A program made the position numbers and the translations under genes. From Candidatus Acidiferrales bacterium (GTDB lineage: Bacteria; Acidobacteriota; Terriglobia; Acidiferrales; UBA7541), in NCBI GenBank assembly GCA_049790315.1, contig JBAQYV010000056.1:537-64536 (forward strand): a stretch of DNA of 64,000 nt. The letters run 5' to 3'. Under the pieces are notes generated by a model. It was given only the letters and a program-made list of their open reading frames with translations, had not been told where the DNA came from and made no database searches. This document shows positions 1-58,245 of this stretch, in pieces (position 1 is the stretch's first letter; each line of letters starts with the position of its first letter).

Positions 1-3000
1 TCGCGACCAGCAGAACCAATGCGGCCGTCGGAACCAAGCGCCGCAGCGGCGATCGGTCATATCCGGCTAGACCTATCCCCCCCAGGAATAGCGCAATCGC
101 CGAGAGTGCCAACCATGTCGGCAATGACGTTGGAACGCTTGGCTCGTATGGTCCCAGCGGCCGTGCCGGTGTAGCCGAAACCGTCGTTCGCGACGTCGTC
201 GTCACCGTCATCGTCGTGCTGGTTCCCGGCGTCACGGAGCTCGGGTTGAACGTCGCCTCAGCGCCTGTCGGTAAACCGGATGCCGTAAAGGTCACTTGGC
301 TTGGCAACGTTCCGGCAACCGGCGCCGTCGTGATCACGAACATCGCCGATCCGCCCGCCGCCACCGTCTGCGGTCCGGTCGGACTCGATATGCTGTAATC
401 GATCACGGTGAACGTCAGACCGTTTGACGCGCCAACAGTCGGTGCCGCATTCAACACGGTGACCGTCGCGGCGCCGCCGACGGAAAGATCGGTCGCCGGA
501 ACCGTAGCAGTCAACTGCGTCGCACTGACGAACGTCGTGGTCAATGCCGCTCCGTTCCATTGCACAGCAGCGCCGCTCACGAAGTTGGTTCCCGTTACTG
601 TCAACATAAAGCTGGCGGTGCCGTCAAGCGCGGACGTCTGCGACAACGACGCGAGGGTGGGCGTCAGGTTGTTGACCGTGAACATTTGCGGAGCGGTGCT
701 CGCCGAGGCATATCCATTTGTGCTGGTGTATGCGGCGGAAAGCGTGTGCGTGCCAACGCTAAGACCGTTCACCGAGGTGGATGCGGTCCCGTTGACGAGA
801 TTCACCGATATTGTCGTGGTATCGACTGTGAACACGACCGAGCCCGCCGGCGTCACTCCTACGCCGGACACTGTCGCGCTGACCGTCACGGCCTGTCCGA
901 CTAGCGGTGAGGCTGGCGATATCGCGCCCAGTGCAATCGTAGGCGTGGGCGCCACGGATGGTCCGGTCAACGTCAACTGTACAGTCGACGGCGTGGAGAG
1001 CGCGGCGTTTGCGAGATTGCCGTTGAACGTCGCGACATCGGTCGGATTGACGAAGGTTGTCGGCGTAAATGCAGCGGTCAGTGTGCAAACTCCGCCTACG
1101 TTCACGGCCGATGGCAAAGTTCCCGTGAGAGTGCAGTCAGTGGAAGTAGCAGCCGCCAGACTGAAGTCTGTTGTATCGGTCTGGCTTACCGACGTCAGTT
1201 GCAGCGCCTGATTGCCGGACTCAAGCAGCGACGCATTCTGCGGCCCAGCACCCGCGCTCGCGAACTGCACGGCTCCCTGAGTACGCGTGAGTTTAAGAAC
1301 GCCTCCCCCGCTTCCCGTGTAGAGATTTCCGGCAGCATCGATCGCCAACGCAGAAGGCGTAACGCTCGCTACTGTAAACGCCGCGCTGTTCGCGCTGGCC
1401 GGAACGGCGAGAATCGCGGCCGTGTCGGCAATCAGTAAGTTCCCTGCCGCATCCGTGGCGATCGCCGACGGTTTCACCGCCGTAGAAGTTACAGTCGACG
1501 TCGCCCCGGTCGACACGTTGAACCGGTAAATCGCCGGCGCGCCGGGATCCGTAACCAGCAAGTTTCCACTCGGATCGATAGCAAGTCCGGCGGGCGCAAC
1601 CAAAGTGCCGACGGCAAGAACGCGCTGCGCTCCGGTAATCGGGCTGAGCTGATAAACGGCTAGCGCGGAAGAATCCGACACATAAAGATTGTTCAGCGCA
1701 TCGACAGTCAATCCACCGGGCTTCGTAAACTGTGACGGCAACGTAGCAACCGCGCCAGTCGGTGAAACCTGCGTGATCAAACCGGTCGATGTATCGGCGA
1801 CATAAACGAAACCCCGGGCATCGACGGCCACGGCGCCCGGCGCGGTGAGTGTTGCCAGGGTCGTCGAAGCGGCGCTTGTGCCCTGCGTGAGAGCTGCTGA
1901 GGCAAACTTCAACAGCGACTTGCTCTTAGCGTCCGACACGTAGACGTTTCCCGAATTATCGGTTGCAAGACCAGTGACCTGAAGGTTCGCACCAAAGTTA
2001 GTCTTGCTTGCGGGATCAAGCGTCGCACCTGCGCCAATGCCGGTGCCGGTAAGCGCGAGGAACGCCGTATTTCCACCGGAACTGTTCACCGTCAGCGGCG
2101 TTGAGCGCGCTCCCGGAACCGCCGGCGTAAAGCTGGAGTTCACGACGCAATCGACTGTCGTATCCAGGTTCGTGGTGCACGCCGGCGTGCCCAAACTCCA
2201 CTCGCTCGAAGCAGCGGCGAAAGCATTGGCGGTCGCCGGGCTATCGCCCGCGATGAAATGAATCTCGATCGGTAACGTCGTGGTGGCGGCGGTCGCGGTG
2301 GCCGGCGAATTCAAGTTCGTCGATACCTTACGAATCCGCGCGTTCAACGTGTCAGAGACGTAGATATTTCCGAGTGTGTCCGTGCCCACGCCGATGCCGT
2401 TGCCACCATCCCCGATAATGGCCTGGATTGCGGGGCAACCATCGCCGAAGCTGTCGGTTGCGCTGGCGCAATTCGTGGTCGTATCGCCCGCGATCGGGCG
2501 GATGAAGTCCGTACGGCCATCAACGAACCAAGCAGCGCCGGAACCGTCGGAAATATAGAGATCACCGCTCGTATCCATGGCCAGCTTCTGCGGGTTCATC
2601 GTTATCGTGTTGGCGAGCGCCGGGCCGGCATACGCCGCGCTTCCTCCGCCGGCCAATGTGTAGATGAATCCATTCTGTGGAGTCGTGACGCCGACTTTGT
2701 TCAAGAGTTGATAAAGCGCCGAGCCCGGTTCGCAGGTTACGCAAACCACGCGCACCTTCTGTGAATCGGCGATGTAGACATTGTCGTTGGCATCCGTCAA
2801 CACGCCCTGCGGATTATCGATCGTCGCGACGGTAGCGAGTCCATTATCGCCCGTTGATGTGGCAGCGCCTGTGCCCGCAAAAGTTTGGATCGTGCCCGTT
2901 GAATTGACAACGCGTATCTTGTTGTCACTCGTGTCCGCAATATAGACATTGCCGACGCTGTCCGCCCATGCGCCGCGCGGGTTGTTGAGCATAGCGGCCG

Positions 3001-6000
3001 TCGCTGCGCCGCCATCGCCATTTGTTGCCGTTGGAGACGAGGGCTTGGTTCCGTTGCCGCCAACGAGAAAGAGCAAGCCGGTCGGGACACTAAACTTGTA
3101 AACCTTATTGTCGTCGTAGCCCGCGATGTAGACATTGCCCTGTGGATCGGTGGAGACGCCGCGCGGTTTGTCAAGTTTCACCAGCGACGGCGTGCAACCA
3201 ACGGTCGCGCTCGGCAGGCAAGAAGTACCCGAAACAAAACCCGCGAAGTTGCTGATCACACCGTTCGGCGCAATCTTACGCACCAAGCTCGAGTTCGCAT
3301 CCGTCAGATACACATTGCCAAACGGATCGGCGGCGACGCTGCGCAGATCGACCGATCCGCTAAACACCATCGACGTTCCCTGGCAACCGTCACCGAAGCT
3401 GTCGGTGGATCCAGCGCACGCCGTGTTGGCGTTGGCCGCCGTGGAACCTCCTGCGATCGTGGACATCGTGTATGGCAGCGAGATGGGATTGCCGGGCAAC
3501 GGAACCAAAACCGGCGGGTTCACGGTGATCGCGATTGGCGGCGTCGAGGAGGACGTCGCGAAGCTTCCGCTCGCGAGATACGTCGCCGTTACGCTGTCGA
3601 CGCCGATCGGCAGGTCAACCGAAGCGATGGCCACTCCACTCGTTAGCGTGGCTGACGCGAGAGCTGTCGGCGTGGTGTTGCCAACGGTAGTGTACGAAAA
3701 GTTGACCGTTCCAGTCGGCGTTCCGGCGACGGAAGAGACCGTCGCGGTGAGCGTAACCGGAACTCCCAGAGTAGTGGTATTCGTATTCGCCGAAAGCCCG
3801 GTCGCGGTTACGGCCGGAGTAATCACAAGCGCGGCCGATGTCGATGTCGAGCCAGCGTTTACTCCGTCTCCGCTGTAGACACCAGAAATCGTATACGTTC
3901 CGACCGGCAAGCTGAAAATCGCCTGCGCCGTGCCCGAAGAACCGAGCGCCGCATTGCTGTAAACAAGGCCGTTCACAACGAATTCAACCGTGCCCGTCGG
4001 GCTGCTTCCCAACACTGTAGCTGTCGCGGTGAACGCCGTGCCGAATGTGGTCGTAACCGGCACGCCGGACAAAGTTGTTGTGCTGGGGCTCAAGCTCCCG
4101 GCATTAACCGTGATGACGTACGGCTCCGTCGTCGAGTACGGCGTGCCCGATACCGTAGGAACGTAGTTCGAATCGCCCGAGTAGGTCGCGACGAACGTGT
4201 GTGTGCCGATCGAAAGACCGCTGAGCGGGATGGAAATCGTGTCGCCGGTTCCGGGTAGCGTCACGGTGGTCGTGCTCCCGGCGCCGTCGCTTATCGTGAC
4301 CGTGCCCGTGGGATATGCGCTGCCTCCCACCGCTGGAGTAAGAATCACGACAGCCGTAGCCGTCTGTCCAGCAGTGATCGTCTGCGGCAAGCCCGCGGGC
4401 CCCGTCAGCTCCGGCGCAATAAGTGTGAAGCCGCACGACGGCAACGATAACGATGTCGCCGTTCGATTATCGGCAAGGGTGTTGCCGTTCATTCCGACAA
4501 ACGTCTGGTAATCGGTGACGATGTCCGTCGAGACCTGACCAGGACCGAGAGTCATCTGGGTTTCGCTAGGCGCGGGCGTCAGATCGGACGCGGGCAGCAT
4601 CGCAAAACTCACGTTGTCCAGAGTGAGAATCAGTGGATTGATCACGCCATTGTTGTCCGCTCCCGTCAGGCCCACCGTACCAGCCGTCAGGAACGCGAGA
4701 TTCTGCATCAGAATGCTCTTGAAGTTCGGTGTCAGGGTTCCGGTGTTGGTGTTGTAGACGGGCGTGAATTGAACTTCAATATTGTGATTCTCAAAGCACG
4801 AATTTGAATATTGGATGTTCTGCACCAGCCCGCCGCGATCGTTCGCGGATTTTATGCGGATTCCGGTGGAATTCGAATCAACGCTGCTGTTGCCGGCCAG
4901 CATGTTGCCGTCAAACAGGATGTTGCTCACACCGGCTGAAGTGAAGCTACCGATCGATTCGCCGTGGCCCGCGAAGAAATGATTATTGGTGACGGAAATA
5001 TTCGTCGAGGCCGAGCTGGGTCCGCCAGAAGCGCCAACGGCAACGTTGTCGTCGCCGTCGGAGATCCATGACCGCGTAATGGTGAAATTCTGTGCCTGAT
5101 CGGGATCGATGCCGTCCGTATTACGTGCGCTGGTCGGCGTGACGATCTTAATGTCCCACGCGGTCAAGCCATTGACTTCCCCGCCGTTCGTGGAAACGTG
5201 GAACAGCGGAGAATTTTTCAGCGTGATCTTATAAAGCGTGACGTTCGTCGCATTGCCCACCTGAATAAAGCGCGGATTTTGCTGGCTGCCGCCGCTATTG
5301 GCGATGGCCGACAGTCCCCACCAACTCTGCCCCGCGAAGCTCGACGGGAAAGCATTGATCAGAGTGTCGCCTCCACGGCCGTCCAGCTTGCCGAATCCCA
5401 TCACGCCAACGTTCGAAACGCCTGTAATGTTGATCAGCGGCAGGCACGAAGACGTGGCCGTGTTGGAATTCACCGTGCCGCAAGTGTGCGTGCCTTGCAC
5501 GACGTCGTAATCCTGCACGTTGCGCGAGAAATAAACGAAAACGCCAGGGTCGACCAGCAGAGTAACTCCCGAAGGCATATTCAGCGGACCTGTGAGGTAC
5601 GCATCGTGTCCAGCACCATCGATCGAAAGCCGTACGGCCTGATTCGTGTTCGCGCAGGAATTTAAAGCGGCCTGAATCCGCGCGCCGTCAGGATTGGTAA
5701 TCGTGGCGTCGACAGAAGTCGGGATGTCATCGTTCACCGACGTCAGCGCCGCGGCAAGCGTCGCGCAAACGGATGGGAACTCGGGTTCAGTAACGGTGCG
5801 GCTGTCGCCCGTGGCCACGGGTGCTGCGAAAGTTGTCGCTTCAATCGTCAGCTCACCGTTCGTAAATGTGAATGTATAGTTGCCGGCCGCAAGCGTACCG
5901 GTAGACGCAACGATCGGATATTCGCCAATCGCCGTGGGAGTCGCCGGGGTCGTAGTGAGCGACGGGGCGCCGCTCGTTGCGCTCGTCTGCGTATCTCCGT

Positions 6001-9000
6001 TCGCAAAACCGGTTATCGTCGCGGTGTAAGCGGGCGCGCTCTGCCCCATCATGATTGTGATGTTGTTCGCCGCAACCTGCAGAATGCCTCGCGCAACCGT
6101 GATCGCGATCGCGTTTGACGTGCTGGCCGCGTTGGTGATGTCGCCGCCGTAACTCGCCGTCAGCGTGTGACTCCCCGCCGCAACACCCGTGAGCGAGTAA
6201 CTGCAAGACCCTCCATTCAGCGTGCAGGTCCCGGCAGTCGCGCCATCCACAAGCAAACTCACCGCGCCCGTCGGGCTCACGCTGCCTGATGCGGGCGTTA
6301 CAGAAACTGTCCCGGTAATCGCAGTGCCATACGTTGTGCTGGGATTCGCGGACGTAAGCACCGAAGTGGTGTTGGTTAACGAAGCGGCCACAGTGATTGT
6401 GAACGTAGACGAAGACGAACTTGCATTGAAATTCGAATCGCCTCCATACGTCATCGTGATTGTGTGCGGACCGACAGCCAGCGTACTGATAGTAAGATAA
6501 GCCTCACCGCTGGCATCGAGCGTACCGGACGCTAGCACCGTGCTGCCATCCAGGAATTGATATGCGCCGGTAGGAATCACTCCCGCGCCCGGAGTCACAG
6601 GCCTGCCCAGAATCGTCACACTGCTTCCCGCGTTCACCGTCAAGCTGCCCGTCGGCGCGAACGAATTCACATCATTGGCCAACGCAGTTATCGGGTTCCA
6701 ATTCGCCTGGAATCCCGTGTAGGTTTGCGCCGGCACCGTCGCCGAAAGAAATGCCACGGGATAATATGCCGCGGCCTCCGCCGCCGTGAGACTCGTCTTG
6801 ATGGAATTCGACGCTTCGATCGTTCCCGGGTCCTGCGATTCCGTTTCGCGCGTACCCGTAACACCCGTGCCGGTGTTTCCTCCGGTGGGCGTCACATTGC
6901 CTGGCAGCGCAGCCGGATATCCGTCCGTTCCAACCGCCGGGTCCGTTAATGGAGAAGTGTTGTACTCCGCGTACGTTGACGTCGGAAGATTTGTATCGCC
7001 CGAGAATTCTATCCAGCCGATCGGATTCACCTGATCAACTTTCGAATTGAGCATGATCCAGGTCGAATACTGTCCGTACGGCCGGCCGTAATCCAGTTGC
7101 GTCATCCCTGTGCTCTGCGAAAACAGAGTGCAGGCGTTACAGACATAGCCGCTCAAATAATCGCTGGCGCTGCCAGTTTCAAATTTCTTGTTCTGCGCTT
7201 CGATGGTTTCTGTTCCCGTGGCAGAATTGCCGTGCCACGCTGTGAAAAATGTCGTGTGGTCATATACCATCGCCGCATCGCCGAACACATAGTCGACATC
7301 GCCGTTGATGGTTCCTTGCCACATGTATTGACGTGCCGCAGTGCAAGCGCTGCCGCATCCTTGGCTCCCCGCATAGAGCGTGTCCTGCTGGCTCGTCAGG
7401 TTCACGTTGTTCAACACAGCCTGATCCGCGGTAATCCACAACGCCAGCGCCTGCGAATTGCATTGTGTCCCGGCGTTGTAAATCGCTTGCAGTGTCTGCG
7501 CGGTCCCGGTATTCGCGCACGAACCGCTCGCCGTGGAATACGTGGTAGTTGTAGTGGGATCTGTGTTGTAAGTGTTTTGAATGGTCAGATACTCGGCGTA
7601 AAAATTAGCCGGGGTATATACAGCGTTGCCGGCCGTCGCCTGGTTGCCGATGAACGCGCTCTTCGAGACATCCAGTATCGATGATCCTTGATCTCCGCTG
7701 GCATTCGCATTGCCGGCGCCGCTGCCTGGGTAAACAAAGGGCGCTGAGAACGCACCATCCTCGCCCGCGATGATCACTTTCGTTGGATCGCCACCCAATC
7801 CGCGCAGCGACACATTGGGATAACTTATGGCGTTCTGCCCCGTGTAAGTTCCTGGCTTCAGGTAAATCGTGCCGCCGGTAACCGGTAGCGCAAGCAATGC
7901 AGCCGTCAGCGACGTGTAATTCCCGCTGCCGTCTGCCGCGACCACATTGTTTGACGCGCCGACTCCCGCGGTCGTGTTCGCCTTGGTCACTGCGTAGGTC
8001 GCCACCGAACCCGTGGATCCGATGTAATCGATCTGATCCGCCGGCGTAAACGTCACCGCCAGCGCATACGTGCCGATCGGCAGATAGCTCGAAGCGTCAA
8101 TCGACGTCGTCGGTCCGCCCGAAGGCGTCGCGGTGTAAGTGAAATCTCCAGGGACGTTTGGCGCGACGGTCGCATCCAGCACGCCCGAACCAATGCCCTG
8201 GCTGAATTGCTGCGTTACGACAGCCGGCGACCAGGTCACGACCGTGGCCGCCTGCTCCACGCTGAAATTCGTGGTAGTCGAATTCGATCCAGTGAAACCG
8301 TTCTGCGTCGCATACGACGCCGCGATCGTGTGGCTACCCGCGCTGATGCCCGAAAGCGTCACGGTCGCAGCACCGCTGCCATTCAGCGTGTACTGCGCTG
8401 CGGTGCCGGAATCCACCGTCACGTTCACGGTACCCGATGCCGTCCCACTGCTCGCTGCAACGGTCACGGTAAATACGACAGTCGGCCCGGTGGCCACGTA
8501 CACGGGATTCGCCGGCGTCTCTCCGCCAATCGTCGTCGTCGTTGTGATCGCCGCGCCTGTCTTCACCGCACTCATCGTTAAACCGCCGATAGTCGACGCC
8601 GCCGGCACATAACTGAGCACATCGCTCACCGTCCCGGTGCCCGCCTGCGGCGTAAATGTCGCCGACAGCGTGCAAGCATTGCCAACCGCCTGTGGCCCGA
8701 GCACGCTCGTCGTAAAGTCGCAAGGCGCGGTCGCTCCGCCCACCACCGCGAAGTCCGACGTGTCGGTCGTCGTGTTCGAGCCGGTCACGCTTTGATTGCC
8801 TACGTTCGTCAGCGTGCCCGCAAGAGTCGTCGCGATGCTTGATCCGAAGCTGAACGAGACTCCGTCGCGCACAACCTGTGTAATGCTCGTGCTGCCCGAA
8901 TCGGCGCTGTAAACATCGCCCGCACCGTCAACCGCAAGACCTGCCGGTGTCACAAGGCCCGTCAGTACCGTCGTGTTCGGACCGCCGACAGGCACCTCAA

Positions 9001-11656
9001 TCACCGACAGACTCACCGAATCCTGCACATAAAGATCGCCCGCCGCATCCACCGCGACTCCAACCGGAACCACCCCCGACAACGCGACAGTCGATTGCAC
9101 GTAGCCCGGGACTCCGCCGACCAAACCCGGCGTCAACTTGTAAACCGCCTCCGCACTCTTGTCTGCCACGTAGACGTTCCCGTACGCGTCAACCGCCAAC
9201 GAGACCGGATTGGTAAAGCCCGTCGCCACCGCCACCTGTGGCGCAAGCGTGTTCGGAACCAGCGACAGTCGGTAAATCGCCGTGTTGGCCGTCGTGCTCT
9301 GTTTATCCGCCACGAAAAGATTACCCGCATCATCCACCGCAATGGCTTGCGGCGTGGCCGTTCCGTTGATCGGCGTATACGAAACTGTTGTGTCCGTATA
9401 GGCAGATGGCTGACCGGCCGAGGCCGGCGCTCCGCTCACAGCAAGTTCTGTAATCGTCGGGGTCCCACTTCCCACCGCAAACACATCGCCAAGCTCATCC
9501 ACTGCGATCTGGCTTGGACTTGCCGGCAATGTTCCCGCCAAGGCCACGCTGCTTCCAGCCTGAATATCCTCAAGGAATTGCCCGCCGCGCGTGTCCATCG
9601 TGTACACGTTTCCGGCGCCATCCAGCGCCACACCCGCCGCAGTGATTCCGCTGAAGATTGCGTTCGTTGTGGGCGCGATGGGCGTGGTGGTTCCGTCATT
9701 CGAACTTGCGCTGTCAAACGCGAGCACCGACCCGGATACCGTTCCATCGAGAGCAATGTTCGCGACCGAAGTTGCCGCCGACCCACCGCCCGGAGTGAAC
9801 GGCAAACTCACGCTCAAAGTTGCGGATCGCAAACCGGCCCTCGAAGGCGTCGATGTCACGGCCACGTTGCAATCGAAAGAATTGTCGTGATTCTGGGCTC
9901 CGCAGCTCAGCGTGCCCGCTGTCATATCTGGTGTCGTCGTTAGCGCCGCGGCCGGCGTCGATGCGGTCCCGGCTGCCGTCTCTGAGAAGTGCACCTGGAA
10001 ATTCTGAATCAGCGTTGTGCCCACAGTCTGCTGAGCCAGCCCCTGCGCCAATACCTTGCGCACGAGCATGCCGGTGGCATTGCTGGAAGCGTCGAACAGA
10101 TAAAGATTATCCTGCCCATCCGCGGCAACGCCCAATCCGTTGCCGTTAGAAAAAAGAGAATCGGATGCAGGACACCCATCGCTATATGCGCTCAGCGATT
10201 CCTGGCCCGAAGAGCCCGTGCAAAAGCCGCCCGTCGTAACATTCGCCGAGCCCGTAAACAGCAACCGCACATACCCGGTATTCATGTCGTAGAAAACGAC
10301 CTTGCTGCTATCTCCAATAAAAATATTTCCCTGCGGAGTCACGTTCACCTTCGTGATCGTCGTGTCCGTGGCCTTCGTGCTCGTTCCGAGCGTCGGCGCG
10401 GCCGCGAGCGTTGTCCCTCCGCCGCCCCACAACAGGTAAATAAATCCAGGCTGCGGCGTCACGCCTGGATTGTTGGCGATAATCGCCGCCTGCATCTTCG
10501 CCGCTGCCGCGCTGGTGCCGCCCACATAAAACACGCGCAGCCCGTGCGTCGGATCGGTAAAAACCATATCGCCCGCCGCGTCGACAGCCACGCCGCTGGT
10601 ATATCCCGAGCTCGCCATCACAGAGCTAAAACTAAACGGGCAGCCGTCCCCGAGCGTGTCGAGCGCGGTTCCGGCGTACGTGAGGCTGTTCACAGTGTTC
10701 GAGCAGCTCTCGTTCACGGTCGTCGCCGTACCGCCCGTGCTCGCGCTCGTCCCCGTGATGTTCACTACCGAATATACAAATCCTTGTGTCACCGCCGCGT
10801 AATTCACTCCCAGCGCCGCATAAACCGGATTGTTCCCCGTAAAGTACGGCGATGTCAGCGGCCCCACCACCACGCGGGTGCGCGACGTTGTTGTGTCGGC
10901 AAAATAAATGTTGCCATACATATCTGCCGTGACGCCGCGCGGTTGATCCACTTCTCCGTTCGACGTTGTGCATCCCGCGGTTACAAAAGTTTGCACCGCC
11001 AGCACGTTGTCGATGCCCACGCCGCCCGAAGGACCGCTTCCCGCGTTCTTCACGCATCCCGCCATCAACCTCATCATTCCAACCTGCGCCGTGGTGCACA
11101 GCGGAGAGCCGACCCGGCAAACCAGATGAATCGCGTTATCGCCGTAGCCGGCAAGCAACACGTTGCCGTAAGGATCGATCCCGATGCCGCGTGACGCGCC
11201 AATTTTCGTCTGTGTCGCCGCAAGGCAGCCATCGCCTTCGGAATCCACAGCACCGCTCGCGCCCGCGCCGCTCGCTTCGGCGCACACGGAAGTCGCGCCA
11301 CCCGCCAGCACACTCATCACTCCGGTAGTAGGATCGACCACGTGAACGATGGAATTCACGTCGTCGGCGACAAATACATTCCCGAACGAATCCACCTCCA
11401 CGCCGCCGCGCCCCGCCGCGCCAAAAATTCCGTTAACCGCCAGACATCCGTCGCCAAAAGCATCTGTCGACACCGCACCCGTCCGCGCATTGAGCGTCGG
11501 ACACGGCGTGCCCGCCACCGCCGTCATCGGCGAGTTCCCGGCAATGGTCGACATCGTGTAGGGCAACGCAACGGAACTCTGTTGCGCGATTGCAGCTGGG
11601 GAGAAAACGACGCACAACACACACACGAATCCGGCGACGCGGGCGGGTCGCATCAT
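1..11656 (-). CDS. Giant secreted multidomain protein, >=3,885 aa, 3' end beyond left window edge. Order: signal peptide, NHL-type propeller array I, Ig-like repeats, CE8 pectin methylesterase domain, Ig-like repeats, GH28 polygalacturonase-type beta-helix, Ig-like repeats, NHL-type array II, Ig-like repeats, TM segments
   Basis: ATG ATG at 11656/11653 sits 6 nt after GGGAGG (rc of 11663-11668). The N-terminus [26 protein letters not shown] is Sec-signal-like. No track ORF anywhere in 1-11656 lies in this minus frame (first codon base = 1 mod 3). Hand translation at 2-262, 3121-3178, 3421-3500, 4801-5158, 7021-7140, 7261-7498, 7861-7978, 8281-8440, 9121-9205 and 11360-11656 gave continuous protein-like sequence in that frame. 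It is therefore one open frame with no in-window stop, which is why the track omits it. Confidence 0.85.
2..130 (-). other. C-terminal membrane module of giant CDS (truncated by window): TM helix, basic loop, start of second hydrophobic helix
   Basis: Base-by-base translation of 2-130 gives [44 protein letters not shown], with the frame still open at base 2. Confidence 0.7.
1300..3490 (-). other. Domain region of giant CDS: NHL-type beta-propeller repeat array II
   Basis: It opens with [15 protein letters not shown] (about 3445-3490), the same motif that opens array I. Blades include [20 protein letters not shown] (3121-3178) and [16 protein letters not shown] (about 1330-1380). Boundaries are approximate. 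Confidence 0.6.
4560..5790 (-). other. Domain of giant CDS: glycoside hydrolase family 28 (polygalacturonase-type) right-handed beta-helix
   Basis: Hand translation gives NTDGIDP (5102-5122), GDDNVAV (5036-5056), GHGESIGS (4946-4969) and RIKS (4847-4858). These are the four conserved GH28 active-site blocks (NTD, G/QDD, GHG, RIK) in the right order and spacing. The upstream [20 protein letters not shown] (about 5642-5701) resembles the GH28 N-terminal cap. Confidence 0.8.
6950..7945 (-). other. Domain of giant CDS: carbohydrate esterase family 8 (pectin methylesterase) beta-helix
   Basis: Hand translation gives [28 protein letters not shown] (from about 7945), [27 protein letters not shown] (7373-7453), [15 protein letters not shown] (7271-7315) and LDYGRPYG (7073-7096). 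These match the CE8 signature set QAVAL / QDTLY / DFIFG / GRPW, including both catalytic Asp and the Arg. Confidence 0.8.
8880..11566 (-). other. Domain region of giant CDS: NHL/SMP-30-like beta-propeller repeat array I (probably two propellers separated by a beta-sandwich insert)
   Basis: It opens with [11 protein letters not shown] (about 11536-11566). Blades of the type VD..GN(V/L)(Y/F)(V/I)AD recur, e.g. [14 protein letters not shown] (11360-11401) and [16 protein letters not shown] (about 9160-9205). Boundaries are approximate. Confidence 0.6.
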
Positions 11657-12307
11657 CAAACGCCTCCCAAGATAAACGTGTAGAAAAGCTAGTAGGGAAA
11701 AGGGACCGTTGTGGTACGTGCTATGCCACATTTAAAAAAACTAAAGATTAGACCCTATATACGTACGGGATTACTAAAGGCGGAGATTTGTAGTATCACT
11801 GGACGCAAACGTCAAGAGGAAAAATGCCTCGGCAAGCGGATTTTCCGTCATGCCAGCTTCCCACTGCCTTCCGGCGCCTTCACGAACCAGCTGAAGTCGC
11901 AGAAAACATTGGGTTAATCTCCGAATTGGGCCGTAGGACGGACCACCCCAACGGTTGCGTGCTTCACACTATGGTTCGAGATCAAATCAAGGAGATCCAC
12001 AAGATTCGCGATTTGACGACCGTATTCTCAATTCCAAAAAGTGGATTCTCGTCATGGCAAGTCGCACCTTACTCCTCCGAGCGAGTGGCCCCCTGCCGTC
12101 AGTCAATCGATTCGAAATGATCCATCGGACACTCTTTCCTACACCCACGTCGAAATGTGTCCCTTTTTGCACGGAAACACTTTCTCGCGCCATCTAATAT
12201 CCGGTATTGGTACGCTTGCGGATAATCCGCGCCAAAGAATCGAGTATCGGCGGCCAGAAGCCGAGCGATCAGCCGAACTAACAAGTACGAAGATAGAGGT
12301 AAACACT

Positions 12308-52004: not shown

Positions 52005-52104
52005 AATGGTCTCTGCCTTACGTGCTCAATCAGAATTGGGACGTACTCTTTTTTGGAGCGGCTCCAAGTAGAGCCTGCGCCCGATGGAGCCGCGCCCGAA
52101 AGGT

Positions 52105-53757
52105 TTAGTCGCGCCGAGTGACAACGCTCTCCACGGCACCGTCGGTCAAGGAAAGCGGCGTGCCGCCCGCGGTGTAGCGATTCCGAAGCAACTGCACGTT
52201 GTCATTTTGCTTTCCTGTCACTTCTACGAGCGGATCATTGCCAGGGGCGGCGGAACAAGACTCAACGACGGCGTTCTGCACGCCGTCCAATCGAATCACA
52301 GGCTGGCCCGGATTCGCTTTGTTCGTGCGAAATCGAAGTAGATCGATGTCGCGCGTATTGCTCACGGCGATCGACGGTCCGGCGTCCGCGTTGACGATCA
52401 CGTTCTCTATTGTGATGCCCGTGGCTTCCGTGCACACCGCGCCTGAAGCAGCCGCTTCCACGGAGATATCGCGGAGATAGACGTTCTGTATCGGGCTCTC
52501 CGGCAAGCCTTGTATGGCGATTGCGCGCTTCACTTTATTGGCCGTAACGCCGGAAAAATACACGTTGCGAATCGTGGGCGTGGTCGCGTCAAAGGGCATC
52601 GCGTGACTGGCGTCGCCGGATTGATAGAGCAGCGTCAGCATCACTGGCTCCTGCTCGATATTCCGCATCACCCAATTTACCGCGCGAATGTCCTCAATCA
52701 CGTTGCCGCGGCCGCGCGCGCTCTTGATGTAAAGACCGCGCACCGTACCGTCGCACACGCAATTGCTGGATGTAACGTTGCGCACGCCGCCCGCGGTCTC
52801 GCTGCCGATGCCGACACCGGCGTGCCCGAATCCGAAATAACAATTCGTCACAACCACTCCCTCGCAGGGCGCGAACGGGTGATCGGGAATATATTTGTAG
52901 CCGGACTTCAGTACAATGCAATCGTCGCCGGTGGAAATGTAACAATTCGAGATGCGCACGTTGCGGCACGATTCCGGGTCGATGCCATCGGTATTCGGAG
53001 AGAATTGGGGATTGACGATGCTAACGCCGTCAATCAGCACATTTTCGCAATCCACCGGATGAATGTTCCACGACGGCGAATTCACGATTGAGAGATCGCG
53101 GATCACAATATTTTTCGAGCGGTATAAATTGATTATGCGCGCGCGGGGCCACGCCAGCGGCGAGCCCGGCGGATTCTCTGGCTCGCGGCCCATCAGGTTC
53201 GCTTGGCGGCGTAAAGCCATCGTTTTGCGAAAAGCGTCCCACCAGATCTGACCTTGACCGTCGAGCGTGCCACGGCCCTGGATCGTTACGTTCTCAAGAT
53301 CGGAGCCGGTCAAAAGAGATGCAAATACTGTGCGGTCCAAACCCTCCCATCGTCCCGCCATCGTTGGATAATCGCTGAAGTTGCCGCTGCCAAGCAGCGT
53401 GGCGCCGGCGACGACTTCAAAAACGATATGGCTCTTGAGGAACAGCGGCCCTGTCAGGTACACGCCGGGCGGAACTACTACGGTTCCACCTCCCGCCTTG
53501 GAGCACGCATCGATCGCGGCCTGAATCGCCGCAGTGCATAGTGTTTTCCCGTCGCCAACAGCGCCGAATGCGCCCACGCTAAAGATATATGGCGACCCGG
53601 CCGTGCCCATCGGAACCGCCGTGGCGCCCTGCGCGCCGTATCGGCCGGCAGCACCGCGCGCGAACAAATCTCCCGCGGGCAACGCTGCGGCGGCGCCCAC
53701 CGCGAGGCCTTGCATAAATTTTCGACGGGATGAAGACGGTTCGCTTTCAGCGCACAT
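52105..53757 (-). CDS. GH28 polygalacturonase (exo-type?) with TAT signal
   Basis: AGGAGG lies 4 nt upstream. It has SSSRRKFMQGLAVGAAAALPAG (RR signal) and the GH28 blocks SPNTDGIDPESC, STGDDCIVLKSG, FGHAGVGIGSE and RGLYIKSARGRG. Confidence 0.9.
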   Translation of the reverse strand: MCAESEPSSSRRKFMQGLAVGAAAALPAGDLFARGAAGRYGAQGATAVPMGTAGSPYIFSVGAFGAVGDGKTLCTAAIQAAIDACSKAGGGTVVVPPGVYLTGPLFLKSHIVFEVVAGATLLGSGNFSDYPTMAGRWEGLDRTVFASLLTGSDLENVTIQGRGTLDGQGQIWWDAFRKTMALRRQANLMGREPENPPGSPLAWPRARIINLYRSKNIVIRDLSIVNSPSWNIHPVDCENVLIDGVSIVNPQFSPNTDGIDPESCRNVRISNCYISTGDDCIVLKSGYKYIPDHPFAPCEGVVVTNCYFGFGHAGVGIGSETAGGVRNVTSSNCVCDGTVRGLYIKSARGRGNVIEDIRAVNWVMRNIEQEPVMLTLLYQSGDASHAMPFDATTPTIRNVYFSGVTANKVKRAIAIQGLPESPIQNVYLRDISVEAAASGAVCTEATGITIENVIVNADAGPSIAVSNTRDIDLLRFRTNKANPGQPVIRLDGVQNAVVESCSAAPGNDPLVEVTGKQNDNVQLLRNRYTAGGTPLSLTDGAVESVVTRRD

Positions 53758-54122: not shown

Positions 54123-54530
54123 GGTTCGGGCCAATTTGGAGCCTGCGGCAATTTGAGCCCGTTCAATATCCGTTCACGCCTCGTGCTTCAGGTGGCCGGG
54201 CAGGTCGAGGACCGGAATCACAAGGGGCGCGCCTCCGGGGGAGGGGCGCGGAGATCGCCACAGTTTTCGTATAGTAGTCTTACCGGGATTACCAAATCCG
54301 GGGCATAATCTCAGGGCTGCGTGCTCAGGCTCAGGACGTTTCCCGCTGACTTTCTAGGTGCGGGCCAATTTGAGCGAAGCTCCTGCGAACGAGAGCGCCC
54401 AGCCAAGCCTCTTCACCGCAGTGAGCGATAGAATGAATCGCTGCCTTATGGGCACGATGCTCCAGGACAGAAAAGTTTAGGCGCACACATAACCGGGTGC
54501 GGGCCCCACTGGGGGCCCGCCAATTTAAGG
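54123..54530 (+). promoter_or_regulatory. Three to four copies of a GGTKCGGGCC..AATTTGRAG motif upstream of the YVTN gene; the last copy is split by a 9-bp all-GC hairpin (54499-54520) 6 nt before the SD
   Basis: Seen directly: GGTTCGGGCCAATTTGGAG (54123-54141) plus CTGCGGCAATTTGAGC (54143-54158); GGTGCGGGCCAATTTGAGC (54357-54375); GGTGCGGGCCCCACTGGGGGCCCGCCAATTTAAGGAG (54496-54532), with stem GCGGGCCCC/GGGGCCCGC. Function is unknown. Confidence 0.35.
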
Positions 54531-54531
54531 A

Positions 54532-57500
54532 GTGCCGACAGAAATGATCCGCGGAAGCTGTGCCAGAAAACACCTCGGCGAAGGCTTGAGGTTGATTCCC
54601 GAATTTGTCAGCAACAATGCCGTCCAGGTTGCGATCTGCGGCGTACTGTTCTGCGCGCTCGTTATGGCTCCGTCCGCTCGCGCGCAGACAGCCACGACCA
54701 CTGTGTTTTCGGGATCCACCCCGGATGCCGTGGCCGTGAACCCGGTGACGAACAAGATTTACGTTGCGAATGAAGGCGCCGGTTCGGTCACCGTGATCGA
54801 CGGCGCGACGAACAACACCACCAGCGTTTCTGTGGGCGCGAGTCCCGATGCCATCGCGGTCGATCCGGTTACGAATCAGATTTATGTCGCAAACCTCGGC
54901 AGCGGCACCGTCACGGTGATCGACGGACCGACCAACGCGGCCACCACGCTCACTTTGCCACCCGGAAGCGCGCCGGACGCCATTGCTGTGGACGCCACGA
55001 CGAACCAAGTTTTCGTCACCAACCAAATCGCCGGCACCGGCAGCGTTACGATCATCAACGGCGCATCGAATTCTCCCGCCGTCACAGCGACCGTCGTCAC
55101 GTCCCTTACTTTGGCAGCCGGAACTGAGCCTACTGCTGTGGCCATCGATCCCGTCACGAACCTGGCCTACGTCGCCACTGAAACCGGCGCCAACGGTAGC
55201 GTGACCATCATCAGTGGCGCGACCAGTTCCCTCTCGGGCACCGTGGCCACCGGAAGCGCGCCTGTCGCGCTTGCCGTCAATTCCATCACGGACACCATCT
55301 ACGTGGCGAATCAAGCCAGCGGCAGCGTAACGGTGATTAACGGATCGACGAACGGCACGGCCGCCATCGCGGTGGGCTCGAGTCCCTCGGCCGTATCCGT
55401 GAATGCCGTAACCAATGTGATTTACGTGGCGAATTCGGGCGGCAGTGGCAGCGTTTCCGTAATCAACGGATCCTCGAACACGGTTACGACGACCATCACC
55501 GGCGCCGGAATCGGGCCTTCGCCCTCGGCATTGGCCATCAATGCATCCAGCAACGAGATCTACATCGCGAACTACAGCAACAGCAATGGTAGTGTGAGCG
55601 CGATTAACGGCACCACGGATACAGTGTCGGCAACGTTGTCGACGGGTGCCGGTCCCCATTCCTTGGCCGCGAATCCTGTTACCGGCAAAGTTTACGTCGC
55701 GAATCTGGGCGGCAACACCGTGGGCGTTATCGACGGCGCCACGAATACTGCGACGCTTGTCACCCTGGGAAGCGACCCCATCGCCGGCACTGCGGATCCC
55801 GCGACGAACCAAGTTTTCATTGCGAACTTCGGCAGCTCCGACGTGACCGTGTTCAACGGACAAACCAACGCCATAACCGCCACCGTTCCGACCGGAGCGA
55901 ATCCCATCGCCATCGCGGACAATCCCGTCACCAGCGAGGTTTACGTCGCGAACCTGAGCAGCGCAAGCGTAACTGCGATCAACGCTGCTATGAGCCCTCC
56001 CACGACCGTGAACGTTCCTGTGGGCGCTGACCCAACCGCGGTAGCCGTGAACCCATTGACGAACAAGATCTATGTGGCCAATGAGCAAGGCAACAGCGTC
56101 ACGGTAATTAACGGTGCGTCGAACTCGGCAGCGACGGTTAGCGTTGGAACCTCGCCCGTCGCCATCGCCGTAAATCCAGTGTCTGACAACGTCTACGTCG
56201 TGAATAAGTTGGGCGGCAGCGTGACGGTCATCAGCGGGGCTACGAACGCTACGTCCACTGTGACCGTCGGAGCCGATCCCTCCGCCGTGGCAGTGGACAC
56301 AGTGACCAACCGGATTTACGTCGCGAACGACGATGGAACCGTCACCGTGATCAACGGTGCGACAAATTCCACTGCGACTGTTCCAATCGGCACAGGAGCC
56401 GTTGCCCTGGCGGTGAATCCGATCACGGACATGATTTATGTCGTCAACCAAGGCAGCAGCAACGTGACCGCCATCAACGGCGCGACGAACAGCGCCACGA
56501 CTATCGTAACCGGCTTGAGCCCGGTCTCGGTGGGCGTGGATCCCGTCTCCAACAAGATTTACGTTGCGAATTCAGGCGGAGGGTCGGTCTCTGTGATCGA
56601 TGGAGCCACCAATTTCGTGAGTACGGTTGCCGCCGGCATTTCTCCAGCCGGCGTAGTTATCGATCCGATCACGAATACGGTTTACGTTCCGAATACGAGC
56701 AGCGGCAATGTGACCATATTCCCCGAAGCCGGCGTGCAATCCGTGCCCTTGACCACCACGATCGCACCGCTCACTGGTAATCAGTCCGTTGGCGCTCCGA
56801 CATTTAATTTTACGACGTCGAGCACGTTCGCTCCGAACGCTCCCGCCGTGAGCGATGTTTATTTTCAGGTGGACACCTGGCAAGGGCCATGGATCGCGGC
56901 CGCAGGCAGCGGAAATACATTCTCAGGCCAGGCGCCGGCGCTCGCCGTAGGTACCCACATTCTTTACGCTTACGCCGCGGATGCGCAGTCTGCCACAGCA
57001 AATGGCTCAAGCAGCCCCGCGATCGGGAGCATCGCGGACTACGTGTTCACGATCATTCCCGCGAGCACATCCGTAACGCTCAGTTCGAATGCGGCCAATC
57101 CCAACCCCGCGGGCACAAGCGTCACTTTCACTGCGACTGTGACCGCCACCGGTCCGAACGCGCCAACCGGAAGCGTTACGCTCGCTGATGGCTCGACCAC
57201 TCTGGGCTCGGCTGCTGTGCAGCAAGTTGGCAACACCGTTGTAGCTACGGCAACCTTTTCCACCTCAACGCTGATTCCCGGGCCGCACTCGATCACTGCC
57301 ATATATAGTGGCGATGCCAACACAGGGGCGAGCGTGTCAGCAGCGTTGCCCGTGACCGTGGGGCCGCAAACGACGACGATCGCGCTCACGTCCGAGCCCA
57401 ATCCGGCGTTCTTCGGAGGGCCCATCACATTCACCGCGACCGTTACGTCGCAGGTGGGCGGCACGCCAACCGGAACTGTATCGTTCATCAATGCAACAGG

Positions 57501-58245
57501 GAACACGACTTTGGGTCAAGGGACTCTGCAGGCCAACGGTACGGCGACGTTTTCGACCTCGAGTCTCGCCTTGGGCACATTCAACATCAATGCCTCCTAT
57601 TCCGGCGATGCCCTGAACCAGCCGAGCACTACCGCCACCGCGCTTTCCCAATCCGTGGGCGCGGCAAGCTTCGTCGTTTCCGCTAGCCCGTCGTCGCAGA
57701 CCGTCACCCAGGGCCAGTCCGCGCTGTATGTGATCGGCATTCAGCCTGAAGGCAACGTCTCGTCTACGGTCTCGTTCAACCCCAGCAGTTCAACGACGGC
57801 GCCCGGCTGCAGCGGCTTGCCCACCGGTGCCACGTGCGTGTTTACGCCGTCTTCGGTAAAACCGGGCACGACATCCACGACCGTATCGCTTGCGATTGCG
57901 ACAGCCGCGCCCGCAACGTCATTGGTCGTTCCGCCGCCCGGGAGCGCGCCGAACTTCAGATTTGGCGCGTTTGGAGCATTTCTTGCGGCGCTCTTGATTC
58001 TCTGCGTCTTTGTAATCGATGGCTTGCGCAGGCGAAGGCGTGGAATGTTCGCGCGATTTGCGATGACGGTCGGCCTGGTGATCGCCATGGGCATGGCGCT
58101 CGCGTCATGCAAGAGTTACACCGCCCCGTCTACCGCTGGCGGCACTCCGGCGGGCAGTTACCTGATCACCGTTACGGCCATATCCGGCACTACGACAAGT
58201 TCTACGAACATCACGCTTAACGTGGGCGCTGCAAGCACCCCCTAA
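54532..58245 (+). CDS. Secreted YVTN-family beta-propeller repeat protein (16 repeats) with Ig-like domains and C-terminal TM-RRRRR-TM(lipobox) module
   Basis: The signal peptide is ...AICGVLFCALVMAPSARAQT. About 40-aa units of the type P.A(V/I)AV(N/D)P.TN.(I/V)YVAN..(S/G).(V)(T/S)VI(D/N)G.TN recur 16 times (54.72-56.72 kb). They are followed by Ig-like repeats with GSVT(L/F).DG...LG...(Y)SGD motifs. The ATG at 54544 (11 nt after AAGGAG) is a likely alternative to the GTG at 54532. Confidence 0.9.
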   Translation: MPTEMIRGSCARKHLGEGLRLIPEFVSNNAVQVAICGVLFCALVMAPSARAQTATTTVFSGSTPDAVAVNPVTNKIYVANEGAGSVTVIDGATNNTTSVSVGASPDAIAVDPVTNQIYVANLGSGTVTVIDGPTNAATTLTLPPGSAPDAIAVDATTNQVFVTNQIAGTGSVTIINGASNSPAVTATVVTSLTLAAGTEPTAVAIDPVTNLAYVATETGANGSVTIISGATSSLSGTVATGSAPVALAVNSITDTIYVANQASGSVTVINGSTNGTAAIAVGSSPSAVSVNAVTNVIYVANSGGSGSVSVINGSSNTVTTTITGAGIGPSPSALAINASSNEIYIANYSNSNGSVSAINGTTDTVSATLSTGAGPHSLAANPVTGKVYVANLGGNTVGVIDGATNTATLVTLGSDPIAGTADPATNQVFIANFGSSDVTVFNGQTNAITATVPTGANPIAIADNPVTSEVYVANLSSASVTAINAAMSPPTTVNVPVGADPTAVAVNPLTNKIYVANEQGNSVTVINGASNSAATVSVGTSPVAIAVNPVSDNVYVVNKLGGSVTVISGATNATSTVTVGADPSAVAVDTVTNRIYVANDDGTVTVINGATNSTATVPIGTGAVALAVNPITDMIYVVNQGSSNVTAINGATNSATTIVTGLSPVSVGVDPVSNKIYVANSGGGSVSVIDGATNFVSTVAAGISPAGVVIDPITNTVYVPNTSSGNVTIFPEAGVQSVPLTTTIAPLTGNQSVGAPTFNFTTSSTFAPNAPAVSDVYFQVDTWQGPWIAAAGSGNTFSGQAPALAVGTHILYAYAADAQSATANGSSSPAIGSIADYVFTIIPASTSVTLSSNAANPNPAGTSVTFTATVTATGPNAPTGSVTLADGSTTLGSAAVQQVGNTVVATATFSTSTLIPGPHSITAIYSGDANTGASVSAALPVTVGPQTTTIALTSEPNPAFFGGPITFTATVTSQVGGTPTGTVSFINATGNTTLGQGTLQANGTATFSTSSLALGTFNINASYSGDALNQPSTTATALSQSVGAASFVVSASPSSQTVTQGQSALYVIGIQPEGNVSSTVSFNPSSSTTAPGCSGLPTGATCVFTPSSVKPGTTSTTVSLAIATAAPATSLVVPPPGSAPNFRFGAFGAFLAALLILCVFVIDGLRRRRRGMFARFAMTVGLVIAMGMALASCKSYTAPSTAGGTPAGSYLITVTAISGTTTSSTNITLNVGAASTP
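57955..58245 (+). other. C-terminal module of YVTN protein: TM1 (57955-58026), RRRRR (58027-58041), TM2 ending in lipobox L-A-S-C (Cys codon 58108-58110), 44-aa beta-strand tail
   Basis: From the track translation: FRFGAFGAFLAALLILCVFVIDGL-RRRRR-GMFARFAMTVGLVIAMGMALAS-C-KSYTAPSTAGGTPAGSYLITVTAISGTTTSSTNITLNVGAASTP. Confidence 0.75.

Follow-up and report, generated by a model that had tools for sequence, protein, structure and literature searches.

We find that the last domain of a large secreted protein from a Candidatus Acidiferrales bacterium is an Ig-like domain interrupted by a membrane hairpin. Judging by its profile score, the resulting C-terminal cassette is a member of the NCBIfam lipo-invert module (NF058595.1, “invert_tail”; lipo-invert putative C-terminal anchoring domain), which has been curated already as a putative anchor. 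After about 75% of the Ig-like domain, the C-terminus continues with a Pro-rich linker, a first helix of 22 residues, RRRRR, a second helix ending in L-A-S-C, and a tail of 44 residues. We propose, with a probability of roughly 60%, that the lipo-invert module is a split-Ig-domain lipid anchor that works through its hairpin and lipobox and uses Lgt and LspA. By “window” we mean throughout the whole stretch of 64,000 nucleotides that was analysed.

The cargo protein is encoded at 54532..58245 on the plus strand (1237 amino acids counted from the GTG at 54532), and both this reading frame and its C-terminal translation are exactly as the initial annotation, made from the letters of the window, had quoted them. 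The most likely start is the ATG at 54544 (1233 amino acids): an AAGGAG lies just 5′ of it (54527-54532), and the aligned first Met of the ortholog P0166 coincides with it. A public MAG annotation (GCA_049674145.1) uses the TTG at 54592 (1217 amino acids). All residue positions are given here in the GTG-54532 numbering and shift by 4 or 20 with the ATG or the TTG start, respectively. Pfam and NCBIfam recognize YVTN-type beta-propeller repeats and two Big_3_5 domains in the protein. The N-terminal Sec-type signal peptide region (54592..54684, plus strand) has the hydrophobic core AVQVAICGVLFCALVMAPSARA, followed by Q; the hydrophobic signal spans amino acids 25-51, the region is kept in the orthologs P0019 and P0166, and an A-x-A pattern suggests the signal peptidase cleavage site. 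Across the whole protein, Kyte-Doolittle 19-mers of at least 1.6 occur only in this signal peptide and in the two C-terminal helices.

All elements of the cassette lie on the plus strand. The first piece of the Ig-like domain (amino acids 1045-1128; 57664..57915), placed by HMM and alignment, ends in the strand TTVSLAIATAAP, and its strands are modelled by AF2 at a pLDDT of around 90. The Pro-rich linker TSLVVPPPGSAPNFR (57916..57960), read from the sequence, leads from the domain to helix 1; its AF2 pLDDT is low (53-65), and the family profile has a conserved Pro (column 22) in this region. Helix 1 (FGAFGAFLAALLILCVFVIDGL; 57961..58026) has Kyte-Doolittle values of up to 2.77, forms a helix at residues 99-121 of the 192-amino acid AF2 model, and is hydrophobic in its column throughout 157 family members. 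It is predicted to be a stop-transfer helix with its N-terminus outside and its C-terminus inside. The RRRRR loop (58027..58041), also read from the sequence, is predicted to be cytoplasmic and to double as the n-region of a lipoprotein-type signal. Helix 2 (GMFARFAMTVGLVIAMGMALAS; 58042..58107), assigned from its hydrophobicity and its agreement with the PS51257-type core pattern, is the predicted re-entrant helix and h-region of a type II signal peptide. Its end, together with Cys1193 (58108..58110), makes up the lipobox L-A-S-C (58099-58110). The Cys is invariant in our diverse cassette alignment (A2) and in all 157 aligned family members; it is the predicted site of diacylglycerol attachment and the predicted +1 residue of LspA cleavage. 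The tail of 44 residues past the Cys (58111-58242; 45 residues with the Cys) opens with the flexible tether KSYTAPSTAGG (58111..58143). It goes on with the strands TPAGSYLITVTAISGTTTSSTNITLNV (58144..58227), which the HMM of uninterrupted domains and AF2 identify as the last two beta-strands of the split domain, and the stop codon follows at 58243-58245. The AF2 pLDDT drops below 50 at model residues 144-155, from the lipobox into the first part of the tether. The initial annotation had described two transmembrane helices around RRRRR, the first of 22 amino acids and the second ending in ALAS-C, and all of these are present at the claimed place. Its topology argument, in which an N-terminal Sec signal is combined with a basic loop inside and both flanks outside, is consistent with all sequence features.

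Is the last domain really one domain in two pieces? An alignment (A1) with uninterrupted copies shows one clean gap, at the insertion. An HMM built from 67 uninterrupted copies of the Ig-like domain matches on both sides of the insertion, first at amino acids 1045-1128 (HMM positions 2-75, 48.6 bits, E 4e-17) and again at amino acids 1195-1232 (HMM positions 65-102, 18 bits, E 1.5e-7), where the conserved match starts only at about position 76. With two matching pieces flanking the insertion, the reading of the last domain as one Ig-like domain split by about 75 residues holds. Once the insertion is taken out, the window domain resembles DUF5980 (PF19410) and related bacterial Ig-like domains: the spliced domain matches positions 26-93 of 97 of the Pfam model, spanning the junction, with a score (24.5 bits, E 3.8e-5) just under the gathering cutoff of 27.1. 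The uninterrupted relatives match DUF5980 too, and the intact window sequence gave no match for this domain in the Pfam scan. The clean gap, the two-piece match and the near-threshold match over the junction bear out the suggestion of the initial annotation that a terminal Ig-like domain is interrupted by the hairpin. Its further suggestion, that the tail is the two missing final strands of the same fold, agrees with the match of HMM positions of about 76-102 in the tail.

Structure prediction on the C-terminus, which had been proposed as a check, points the same way. The 192-amino acid AF2 model has tail strands at 163-173 and 176-187 with a pLDDT of 91-94, as high as that of the N-terminal strands, and places the two helices between the two sets of strands. 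From pLDDT, DSSP and homology, the tail probably pairs with the earlier strands. Foldseek results serve as consistency checks only. The insertion of about 75 residues spoils the superposition of the full model, which therefore gave only weak matches to Ig V-domains (E about 0.01, TMq about 0.2); the best matches of a spliced model (pLDDT 69.8, from a 6-sequence alignment) are Ig domains over about 116-139 columns, and are weak as well (best E 2.9e-3). The split tails carry an extra constraint: the motif GTPxG is found in 138 of 155 split tails versus 1 of 67 uninterrupted domains.

The cassette scores 68.4 bits against NF058595 (cutoff 37, E 6.4e-19), over profile positions 2-112 of 113. The match covers amino acids 1117-1231 (57772..58224, plus strand) and ends 6 residues ahead of the stop codon. 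Ten of ten diverse relatives also score above the cutoff (67.8-107 bits). The model covers the same 113-position span, from the last strand before the insertion through helix 1, the basic loop, helix 2 and the Cys to the tail strands, and its architecture is identical to that of the window copy. The statement of the initial annotation that no named sorting signal has such a layout was therefore wrong, since NF058595 covers exactly this segment and its diverse relatives. Its exclusion of LPXTG, PEP-CTERM, GlyGly-CTERM and the T9SS CTD stands, as none of these models matched in the Pfam and NCBIfam scans. The window subfamily differs from the common form of NF058595 in having a Gly-rich helix 1 (FGAFGAF...) in place of FYA-x-LLPG and K/H in place of G at position +2.

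A search with a cassette profile had been suggested along with the reading of the cassette. Of the 1.84 billion representative proteins in the library, 10,114 matched the profile at E<=1e-3; the stricter limit of E<=1e-10 left 1,137 protein clusters, and the cassette nearly always stood at their extreme C-terminus. Among the best 150 matches, 146 of the 148 new proteins cover most or all of the profile and end the match within about 14 residues of the C-terminus. The cassette is kept at 56-70% identity in close homologues, and the orthologs P0019 and P0166 (70% identity over their full length) are identical at MGMALASC. Conservation in close homologues and in more than 1,000 clusters indicates that the cassette is more than a chance resemblance. 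Short stand-alone genes (94-128 amino acids) among the matches do not look like natural split versions but like contig-edge fragments that start inside the preceding strand.

Every element of the cassette is conserved. Family traits (helices, basic loop, Cys, tail) were taken from the member alignment made in this analysis, and position counts from hmmalign-based columns. Beside the invariant Cys, a small residue (S, A or G) occupies position -1 in 154 of 155 members, and 105 of 155 have L or M at position -3. Gly predominates at positions +2 and +3; across the family, +2 is Gly or Ser and almost never Asp. The loop has a median of 4-4.5 K/R and of 0 D/E (range 0-2), the tail is 37-51 residues long, and the stretch from the Cys to GTP (8-19 amino acids, median 12) is rich in G/S/T/P/N. 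In most members the outer end of helix 1 has the motif [FY][YF]A-x-[LW]-L-P-x-x-G; the window subfamily is without this FYA-LLP motif, its helix 1 being FGAFGAFLAALL. Among apparently full-length members, 29 of 46 have an N-terminal hydrophobic signal. A scan of a species-representative genome collection confirmed 183 cassette loci; it used the alignment of the commonest subfamily (A3), not the diverse alignment A2, so the taxonomic picture is biased towards that subfamily. The sampled loci of this commonest subtype are almost all from Acidobacteriota, and on that sample the module is found here almost only in this phylum.

The window holds a second, truncated copy of the cassette (2..400, minus strand), recognized from its translation and a partial NF058595 match (profile 2-63 of 113, 23.4 bits); our own cassette HMM, run on the six-frame translation of the window, detects the complete copy only. 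The initial annotation had seen the same cassette at 2-262. The cassette is indeed present at the truncated end of a giant protein, which is its C-terminus on the minus strand, and it spans 2-400. The gene (11731..2, minus strand; at least 3,910 amino acids) is cut by the window edge inside the second helix. Its cassette comprises the Ig N-part (194-400), the linker (116-193), helix 1 (59-115), the basic loop (29-58) and the start of helix 2 (2-28), with the remainder past the edge, all on the minus strand. The homologues of this C-terminus all go on with the second helix, [AG]-C, a G/S linker and GTPAGxY...TV. The cargo here consists of Pectinesterase, GH28, seven Big_3_5 domains and NHL/SBBP.

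We compared the end of helix 2 with the PROSITE lipoprotein rule. The window sequence VIAMGM-AL-A-S-C agrees with the PS51257 core, {DERK}(6)-[LIVMFWSTAG](2)-[LIVMFYSTAGCQ]-[AGS]-C, as do 112 of 155 family members. The other 43 fail the strict expression, most of them with Q at -3 or P at -2, and 4 of the 43 are too short for the comparison. The fit to the PROSITE-type rule and the invariant Cys favor the earlier description of the second helix and its Cys as a lipobox. The positional part of PS51257 (Cys at residues 15-35, K/R in the first 7) does not apply to the whole protein, where the Cys stands at 1193 (at 1189 or 1173 if counted from the other starts); it does apply to the isolated segment from RRRRR on, where the Cys is at position 28. 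Viewed alone, RRRRR-GMFARFAMTVGLVIAMGMALAS-C is built like a canonical lipoprotein precursor (Sec/SPII, Lgt-LspA-Lnt), with n-region, h-region, lipobox and +1 Cys, and helix 2 shares the N-in/C-out orientation of such precursors by prediction. Canonical signals lie within the first 35 residues, whereas this one lies about 1,165 residues from the N-terminus and is preceded both by the Sec signal at the N-terminus and by a stop-transfer helix. Unlike in canonical lipoproteins, the “mature lipoprotein” would be just 45 residues long, and cleavage would split a folded domain. We also considered an internal start that would make the tail a separate mini-lipoprotein. Relatives have M, V, I, L or S where the window protein has its Met after RRRRRG, and because of this variation the idea was rejected as a general mechanism.

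The following course of events, from membrane topology and lipid attachment to cleavage, docking of the cleaved tail and the final place of the protein, is inferred from this anatomy. The N-terminal Sec signal would export the passenger of about 1,100 residues, with its beta-propeller repeats and Big_3_5 domains. Helix 1 would then halt translocation, with the Arg cluster remaining in the cytoplasm, and helix 2 would re-insert N-in/C-out, as a normal lipoprotein signal peptide does, bringing L-A-S-C to the outer face. Lgt would be expected to add diacylglycerol to Cys1193, and LspA to cut immediately before it. The hairpin would sit in the loop between the last Ig-like strands, and the lipidated 44-residue tail would give the domain its two final strands; in this way the passenger would end up tied at its C-terminal end to a lipid anchor through the completed beta-sandwich. 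A counterpoint is that the cut by LspA would leave the passenger covalently attached to both helices of the hairpin, so that the lipid adds nothing obvious unless a further cut removes helix 1. It is tempting to extend the proposal, although we do so only tentatively: LspA might cut inside the Ig-like domain, a second enzyme might remove the hairpin or ligate the passenger to the lipidated Cys at its free amino group, and the protein might be displayed at the surface by strand complementation with the 44-residue lipopeptide.

How does the module compare with known C-terminal tags? LPXTG/sortase, PEP-CTERM/exosortase, GlyGly-CTERM/rhombosortase and PGF-CTERM/archaeosortase have a three-part layout (motif, helix, basic cluster) like the first half of the cassette, and like lipo-invert they occur on many unrelated secreted cargoes. 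In lipo-invert, by contrast, about 70 more residues come after the basic cluster and include another helix, the lipobox and two beta-strands, and no PEP, GG or LPXTG motif precedes helix 1. We know of no dedicated sortase for the lipo-invert tail. Closer to it is MYXO-CTERM of the Myxococcota (myxosortase MrtX), a C-terminal tag on Sec-exported surface proteins whose invariant Cys is a proposed site of lipidation, possibly through Lgt, and of subsequent cleavage (PMC11980579). Its layout is a Cys motif, one helix and an Arg tail, so that the Cys precedes an N-out/C-in helix; its authors speak of an “inverted topology” without a defined lipobox (PMC11980579). Both are C-terminal tags with an invariant Cys on secreted proteins, with many cargo types per genome. 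In lipo-invert, however, a second helix restores the canonical orientation, a lipobox is present, and the Cys comes after the helices and is followed by 44 structured residues. The NCBIfam scan of the last 201 amino acids at E<=0.1 gave NF058595 alone and no match to MYXO-CTERM (TIGR03901). If LspA does cut, there is also a likeness to the GAIN/GPS region of adhesion GPCRs and the SEA domains of mucins, which cut themselves in a tight turn and whose halves are held non-covalently: strands on either side of the cut would hold the domain together, and an extracellular fragment would be tethered to a membrane-anchored one. In lipo-invert, in contrast, a membrane peptidase would do the cutting, a membrane hairpin of about 55 residues would lie between the parts, and a lipopeptide would be the anchored part; the domains are unrelated to it in sequence and in fold.

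One alternative, which we consider possible and on the unlikely side, is that the cassette is a sorting tag with two cuts. Besides the Lgt and LspA steps, an extra intramembrane or juxtamembrane enzyme, either a protease (rhomboid-, CPBP- or S2P-like) or a transpeptidase, would act at or before helix 1, and the hairpin would be discarded. The passenger would be held by the docked lipidated tail or re-ligated, and then moved to the outer membrane or surface by Lol or type II secretion. The cargoes suit this idea, as they act on extracellular polymers (S53 peptidases, pectinesterase/GH28) and would be of little use at the inner membrane. So does the [FY][YF]A-x-[LW]-L-P-x-x-G motif with its helix-breaking Pro and Gly, such as also occur in the substrates of intramembrane proteases and in other motif-TM-basic tags, although the window subfamily itself is without this motif. 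By the E. coli +2 rule, a lipoprotein without Asp at +2 is not retained in the inner membrane, so the Gly or Ser at +2, almost never Asp, argues against retention there. The idea rests entirely on inference, and no candidate enzyme adjoins the two cassette genes of the window. A precedent exists in MYXO-CTERM, with lipidation first, then a cut by a dedicated protease, and finally type II secretion (PMC11980579).

A plain double-helix anchor in the cytoplasmic membrane, with the Cys not acylated, or acylated without cleavage, and the chain in one piece, seems to us distinctly improbable. Two hydrophobic helices and a basic loop would suffice for anchoring, 43 of the 155 members depart from the strict lipobox pattern, and there is no established case, as far as we know, of Lgt and LspA acting on a site beyond residue 1,000 of a protein. 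Such an anchor, however, would have no need of a Cys conserved throughout (157 of 157), nor of a small -1 residue or a G/S-rich tether; and since a single C-terminal helix would do, it would leave the second helix, the strict length of the tail (37-51 amino acids) and the insertion into a domain loop without a reason. An artefact (a gene fusion, frameshift or assembly error that joined a membrane fragment to a small lipoprotein) or a fortuitous resemblance has nothing in its favor but the unusual position of the signal and is next to impossible, being refuted by the in-frame conservation of the same architecture in orthologs from independent assemblies, with a continuous reading frame, more than 1,000 clusters, 183 confirmed loci and two copies in the window itself.

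The split-domain lipid anchor is thus our preferred reading of a module that, in the cassette cargoes we examined, is attached to S53 pro-kumamolisin peptidases, NHL/beta-propeller proteins, pectinesterase/GH28 proteins and Ig-repeat proteins, which look like extracytoplasmic enzymes or adhesins. The neighbors of the cassette genes are genes of pectin/galacturonate and galactose catabolism, an ADOP permease and oxidoreductases; no lgt, lspA, dedicated protease or acyltransferase gene lies near either cassette gene in the window. In the literature on lipo-invert, internal or C-terminal lipoboxes and choice-of-anchor domains, we found no publication that describes the module. Polymer-degrading Acidobacteriota are abundant in soil and peat, and the module bears on the question of how they keep large hydrolases at the surface; more than 1,000 distinct protein clusters carry it. 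As clear targets for experiments, the analysis points to the Cys together with the residue before it, to GTPxG as the re-entry motif and to the motif that is conserved where helix 1 begins. The module could also be put to use as a portable tag for display. Use of the lipobox would mean that the ordinary Lgt/LspA pathway acts on a signal inside the chain, beyond residue 1,000, and cuts within a folded domain. If the proposal is true, these bacteria would have a C-terminal lipid anchor reached by a route unlike that of the sortase-like systems, through the machinery of N-terminal lipoproteins.

The C-terminal layout proposed in the initial annotation reappears on translation, with the same elements in the same order. 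The cargo gene (ORF listing: 54532..58245, + strand) encodes 1237 amino acids, numbered here from GTG 54532. Its C-terminal region begins with Ig-like strands, the N-terminal part of a split domain (amino acids 1045–1128). Then come a Pro-rich linker, a hydrophobic helix 1 (FGAFGAFLAALLILCVFVIDGL; 57961–58026), an RRRRR loop (58027–58041), a hydrophobic helix 2 (GMFARFAMTVGLVIAMGMALAS; 58042–58107), Cys1193 (58108–58110) and a 44-residue tail (KSYTAPSTAGGTPAGSYLITVTAISGTTTSSTNITLNVGAASTP) that runs up to the stop codon, all on the + strand. These two helices and the N-terminal signal (amino acids 25–51, ...VMAPSARA then Q) are the only strongly hydrophobic segments of the protein, whose body has a YVTN-type beta-propeller (TIGR02276, 12 repeats) and two Big_3_5 Ig-like domains (Pfam/NCBIfam). 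The start codon is ambiguous within 54527–54594: the ORF finder takes the GTG, while TTG 54592 is used in a public MAG annotation (GCA_049674145.1), giving 1217 amino acids. The likeliest start is ATG 54544; AAGGAG lies 11 nt 5' of it (54527–54532), and its Met aligns with the first Met of the ortholog P0166.

This arrangement had been thought to correspond to no named signal, but NCBIfam does name it. The last 201 amino acids match NF058595.1, “invert_tail” (68.4 bits, cutoff 37; amino acids 1117–1231, profile positions 2–112 of 113), described as [quoted passage not shown] All ten diverse cassette relatives that we scored also match NF058595 (67.8–107 bits), so the family defined by our own cassette profile is that of NCBI. 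Full-text literature searches found no paper describing the lipo-invert module. The cassette is thus a further member of a kind already curated in NCBIfam and, as far as we found, unpublished.

All elements of the cassette are kept in close homologues (56–67% identity over the last 192 amino acids), and the full-length “Candidatus Acidiferrales” orthologs, at 70% identity, have an identical MGMALASC. A profile search reveals a large family. At E ≤ 1e-3 the 118-position cassette profile matches 10,114 proteins among 1.84 billion cluster representatives, and at E ≤ 1e-10 it matches 1,137. The top 150 include 148 new proteins; 146 of these are matched along most of the profile or its entire length, with no more than about 14 residues between the end of the match and the C-terminus. 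We also scanned one genome per species for the commonest cassette subfamily and obtained 183 confirmed loci, of which the top-scoring 80 are almost all in Acidobacteriota MAGs (Acidobacteriaceae, Ca. Sulfotelmatobacter, Ca. Acidoferrum, Terriglobales). Elsewhere in the family, the tail is attached mainly to pro-kumamolisin (S53) peptidases, NHL proteins and chitobiase-associated domains.

The alignment of 157 family C-termini bears out the lipoprotein-type character of helix 2 and its Cys. The Cys is present in 157/157, and 154 of 155 have S, A or G at position −1. L or M stands at position −3 in 105/155, and Gly occupies positions +2 and +3 in 127 and 123 of 155, respectively. A PROSITE-type lipobox core pattern is matched by the window protein and by 112/155 members; the exceptions mostly have Q at −3 or P at −2, and four are sequences too short for the test. 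The loop has a median of 4–4.5 K/R and of 0 D/E (range 0–2). The tail is 37–51 amino acids long (median 43), with a G/S/T/P/N-rich linker of 8–19 amino acids from the Cys to the next strand. Gln at −3 (18/155, e.g., ...VFQSAC, ...LQLGC) and Pro at −2 (11/155, e.g., ...WMPAC) are unusual for canonical lipoboxes. The deviant members, among them P0054, P0055, P0062, P0093, P0125 and P0165, may represent subfamilies or a relaxed specificity of acidobacterial LspA/Lgt.

The Ig-like domain is indeed interrupted. Aligned with copies that lack the interruption, some of which lie upstream within the same proteins (e.g., P0006, P0012), it shows one clean insertion, between the strand “...TLTITT” and “(G)TPxGxYxxTVT.” An HMM of 67 uninterrupted domains (103 positions) matches the window protein in two pieces: positions 2–75 on amino acids 1045–1128 (48.6 bits, E = 4e-17), and amino acids 1195–1232 (18 bits, E = 1.5e-7), where the alignment spans positions 65–102 and the conserved match starts at about 76. 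Removing the insertion computationally leaves a domain whose alignment to Pfam DUF5980 spans the junction (24.5 bits, narrowly short of the 27.1 cutoff), and the best PDB matches of the spliced model are Ig domains over essentially the whole length, with weak E-values. In the AlphaFold2 model of the last 192 amino acids, the helices (model residues 99–121 and 128–141) have a pLDDT of approximately 50–77, and the tail strands (163–173 and 176–187) reach 91–94, matching the N-terminal strands. The pairing of the tail strands with the N-terminal part is supported by homology and model confidence rather than by inspected contacts. The motif GTPxG, at which the fold is re-entered, occurs in 138/155 split tails versus 1/67 uninterrupted domains, a difference suggesting that tails of split domains are under an additional constraint. 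In the window protein the motif opens the tail strand (58144–58158, GGTPAG). The split domain also carries approximately 7–10 extra residues (NPSSSTTAPG; 57772–57801, amino acids 1081–1090) missing from the orthologs P0019 and P0166 and from close homologues; AlphaFold2 confidence there is below 50 (model residues 43–45).

A second copy does lie at the truncated end of the giant protein (2–11731, − strand; at least 3,910 amino acids), which has an N-terminal signal peptide, Pectinesterase, GH28 polygalacturonase, seven Big_3_5 and MBG_2 domains, and NHL/SBBP propeller repeats. Its translation gives, on the − strand, the Ig N-terminal part (194–400), linker (116–193), a 19-residue helix 1 (59–115), a 10-residue loop (29–58) and the first nine residues of helix 2 (2–28) before the window edge, with a partial NF058595 match (profile positions 2–63 of 113). 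In homologues that cover this fragment in full, the chain goes on through helix 2, [AG]-C, a G/S linker and GTPAGxY...TV(Q). In two homologues of this C-terminus, P0176 and P0178, NCBIfam NF058597 “choice-of-anchor Z” repeats, whose accession neighbours NF058595, directly precede invert_tail, which suggests that to the curators it is one among several anchors that can replace one another; NF058597 has no match in the giant protein of the window.

The window is rich in genes for pectin/galacturonate catabolism, and the neighbours also include galK/galT, alpha-galactosidase and an ADOP-type permease. Directly upstream of the cassette gene, a hexuronate and pectin utilisation run (43272–53757, −) encodes an MFS transporter, GFO/IDH/MocA oxidoreductase, UxaC glucuronate isomerase, amidohydrolase, SDR, altronate/galactarate dehydratase and a GH28 with a twin-Arg-like leader. 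The permease (17865–20534, +; 890 amino acids) has the duplicated MacB_PCD + FtsX architecture of acidobacterial duplicated orphan permeases, consistent with an acidobacterial origin of the window. The 834-amino-acid ORF at 20778–23279 (+) has no Pfam match at E ≤ 1e-5, and a 408-amino-acid ORF (62087–63310, +) has a PKD domain at its end. Neither lgt nor lspA nor a candidate sorting protease occurs near the cassette genes in the window.

From Sec topology and what is known of Lgt and LspA, the cassette most likely works as follows. The passenger would be exported via its N-terminal signal until helix 1 stops transfer, keeping the basic loop inside. Helix 2 would re-insert N-in/C-out, the Cys would be acylated and the chain then cut just before it, and the lipidated tail would supply the last two strands of the Ig-like domain. 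LspA's cut alone would leave the passenger joined to the hairpin; where the cargo is an enzyme that attacks polymers outside the cell, this speaks for an additional cut. The motif [FY][YF]A-x-[LW]LP-x-x-G, conserved at the outer end of helix 1 in most members, would be a fitting target for an intramembrane protease, but it is missing from the window's own subfamily and no enzyme for this cut was identified. If the hairpin were simply a two-helix anchor that carries no lipid, the invariant Cys, the small −1 residue, the fixed tail length and the position of the insertion inside a domain would go unexplained. Conservation across independent assemblies rules out an artefact of gene fusion or assembly. 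On the Lgt/LspA-type route, helix 2 would present the lipobox in the orientation these enzymes normally see, unlike MYXO-CTERM, in which the Cys precedes an N-out/C-in helix, an inverted topology with no defined lipobox according to its authors (PMC11980579). The proposed mechanism would account for the curators' word “invert.”
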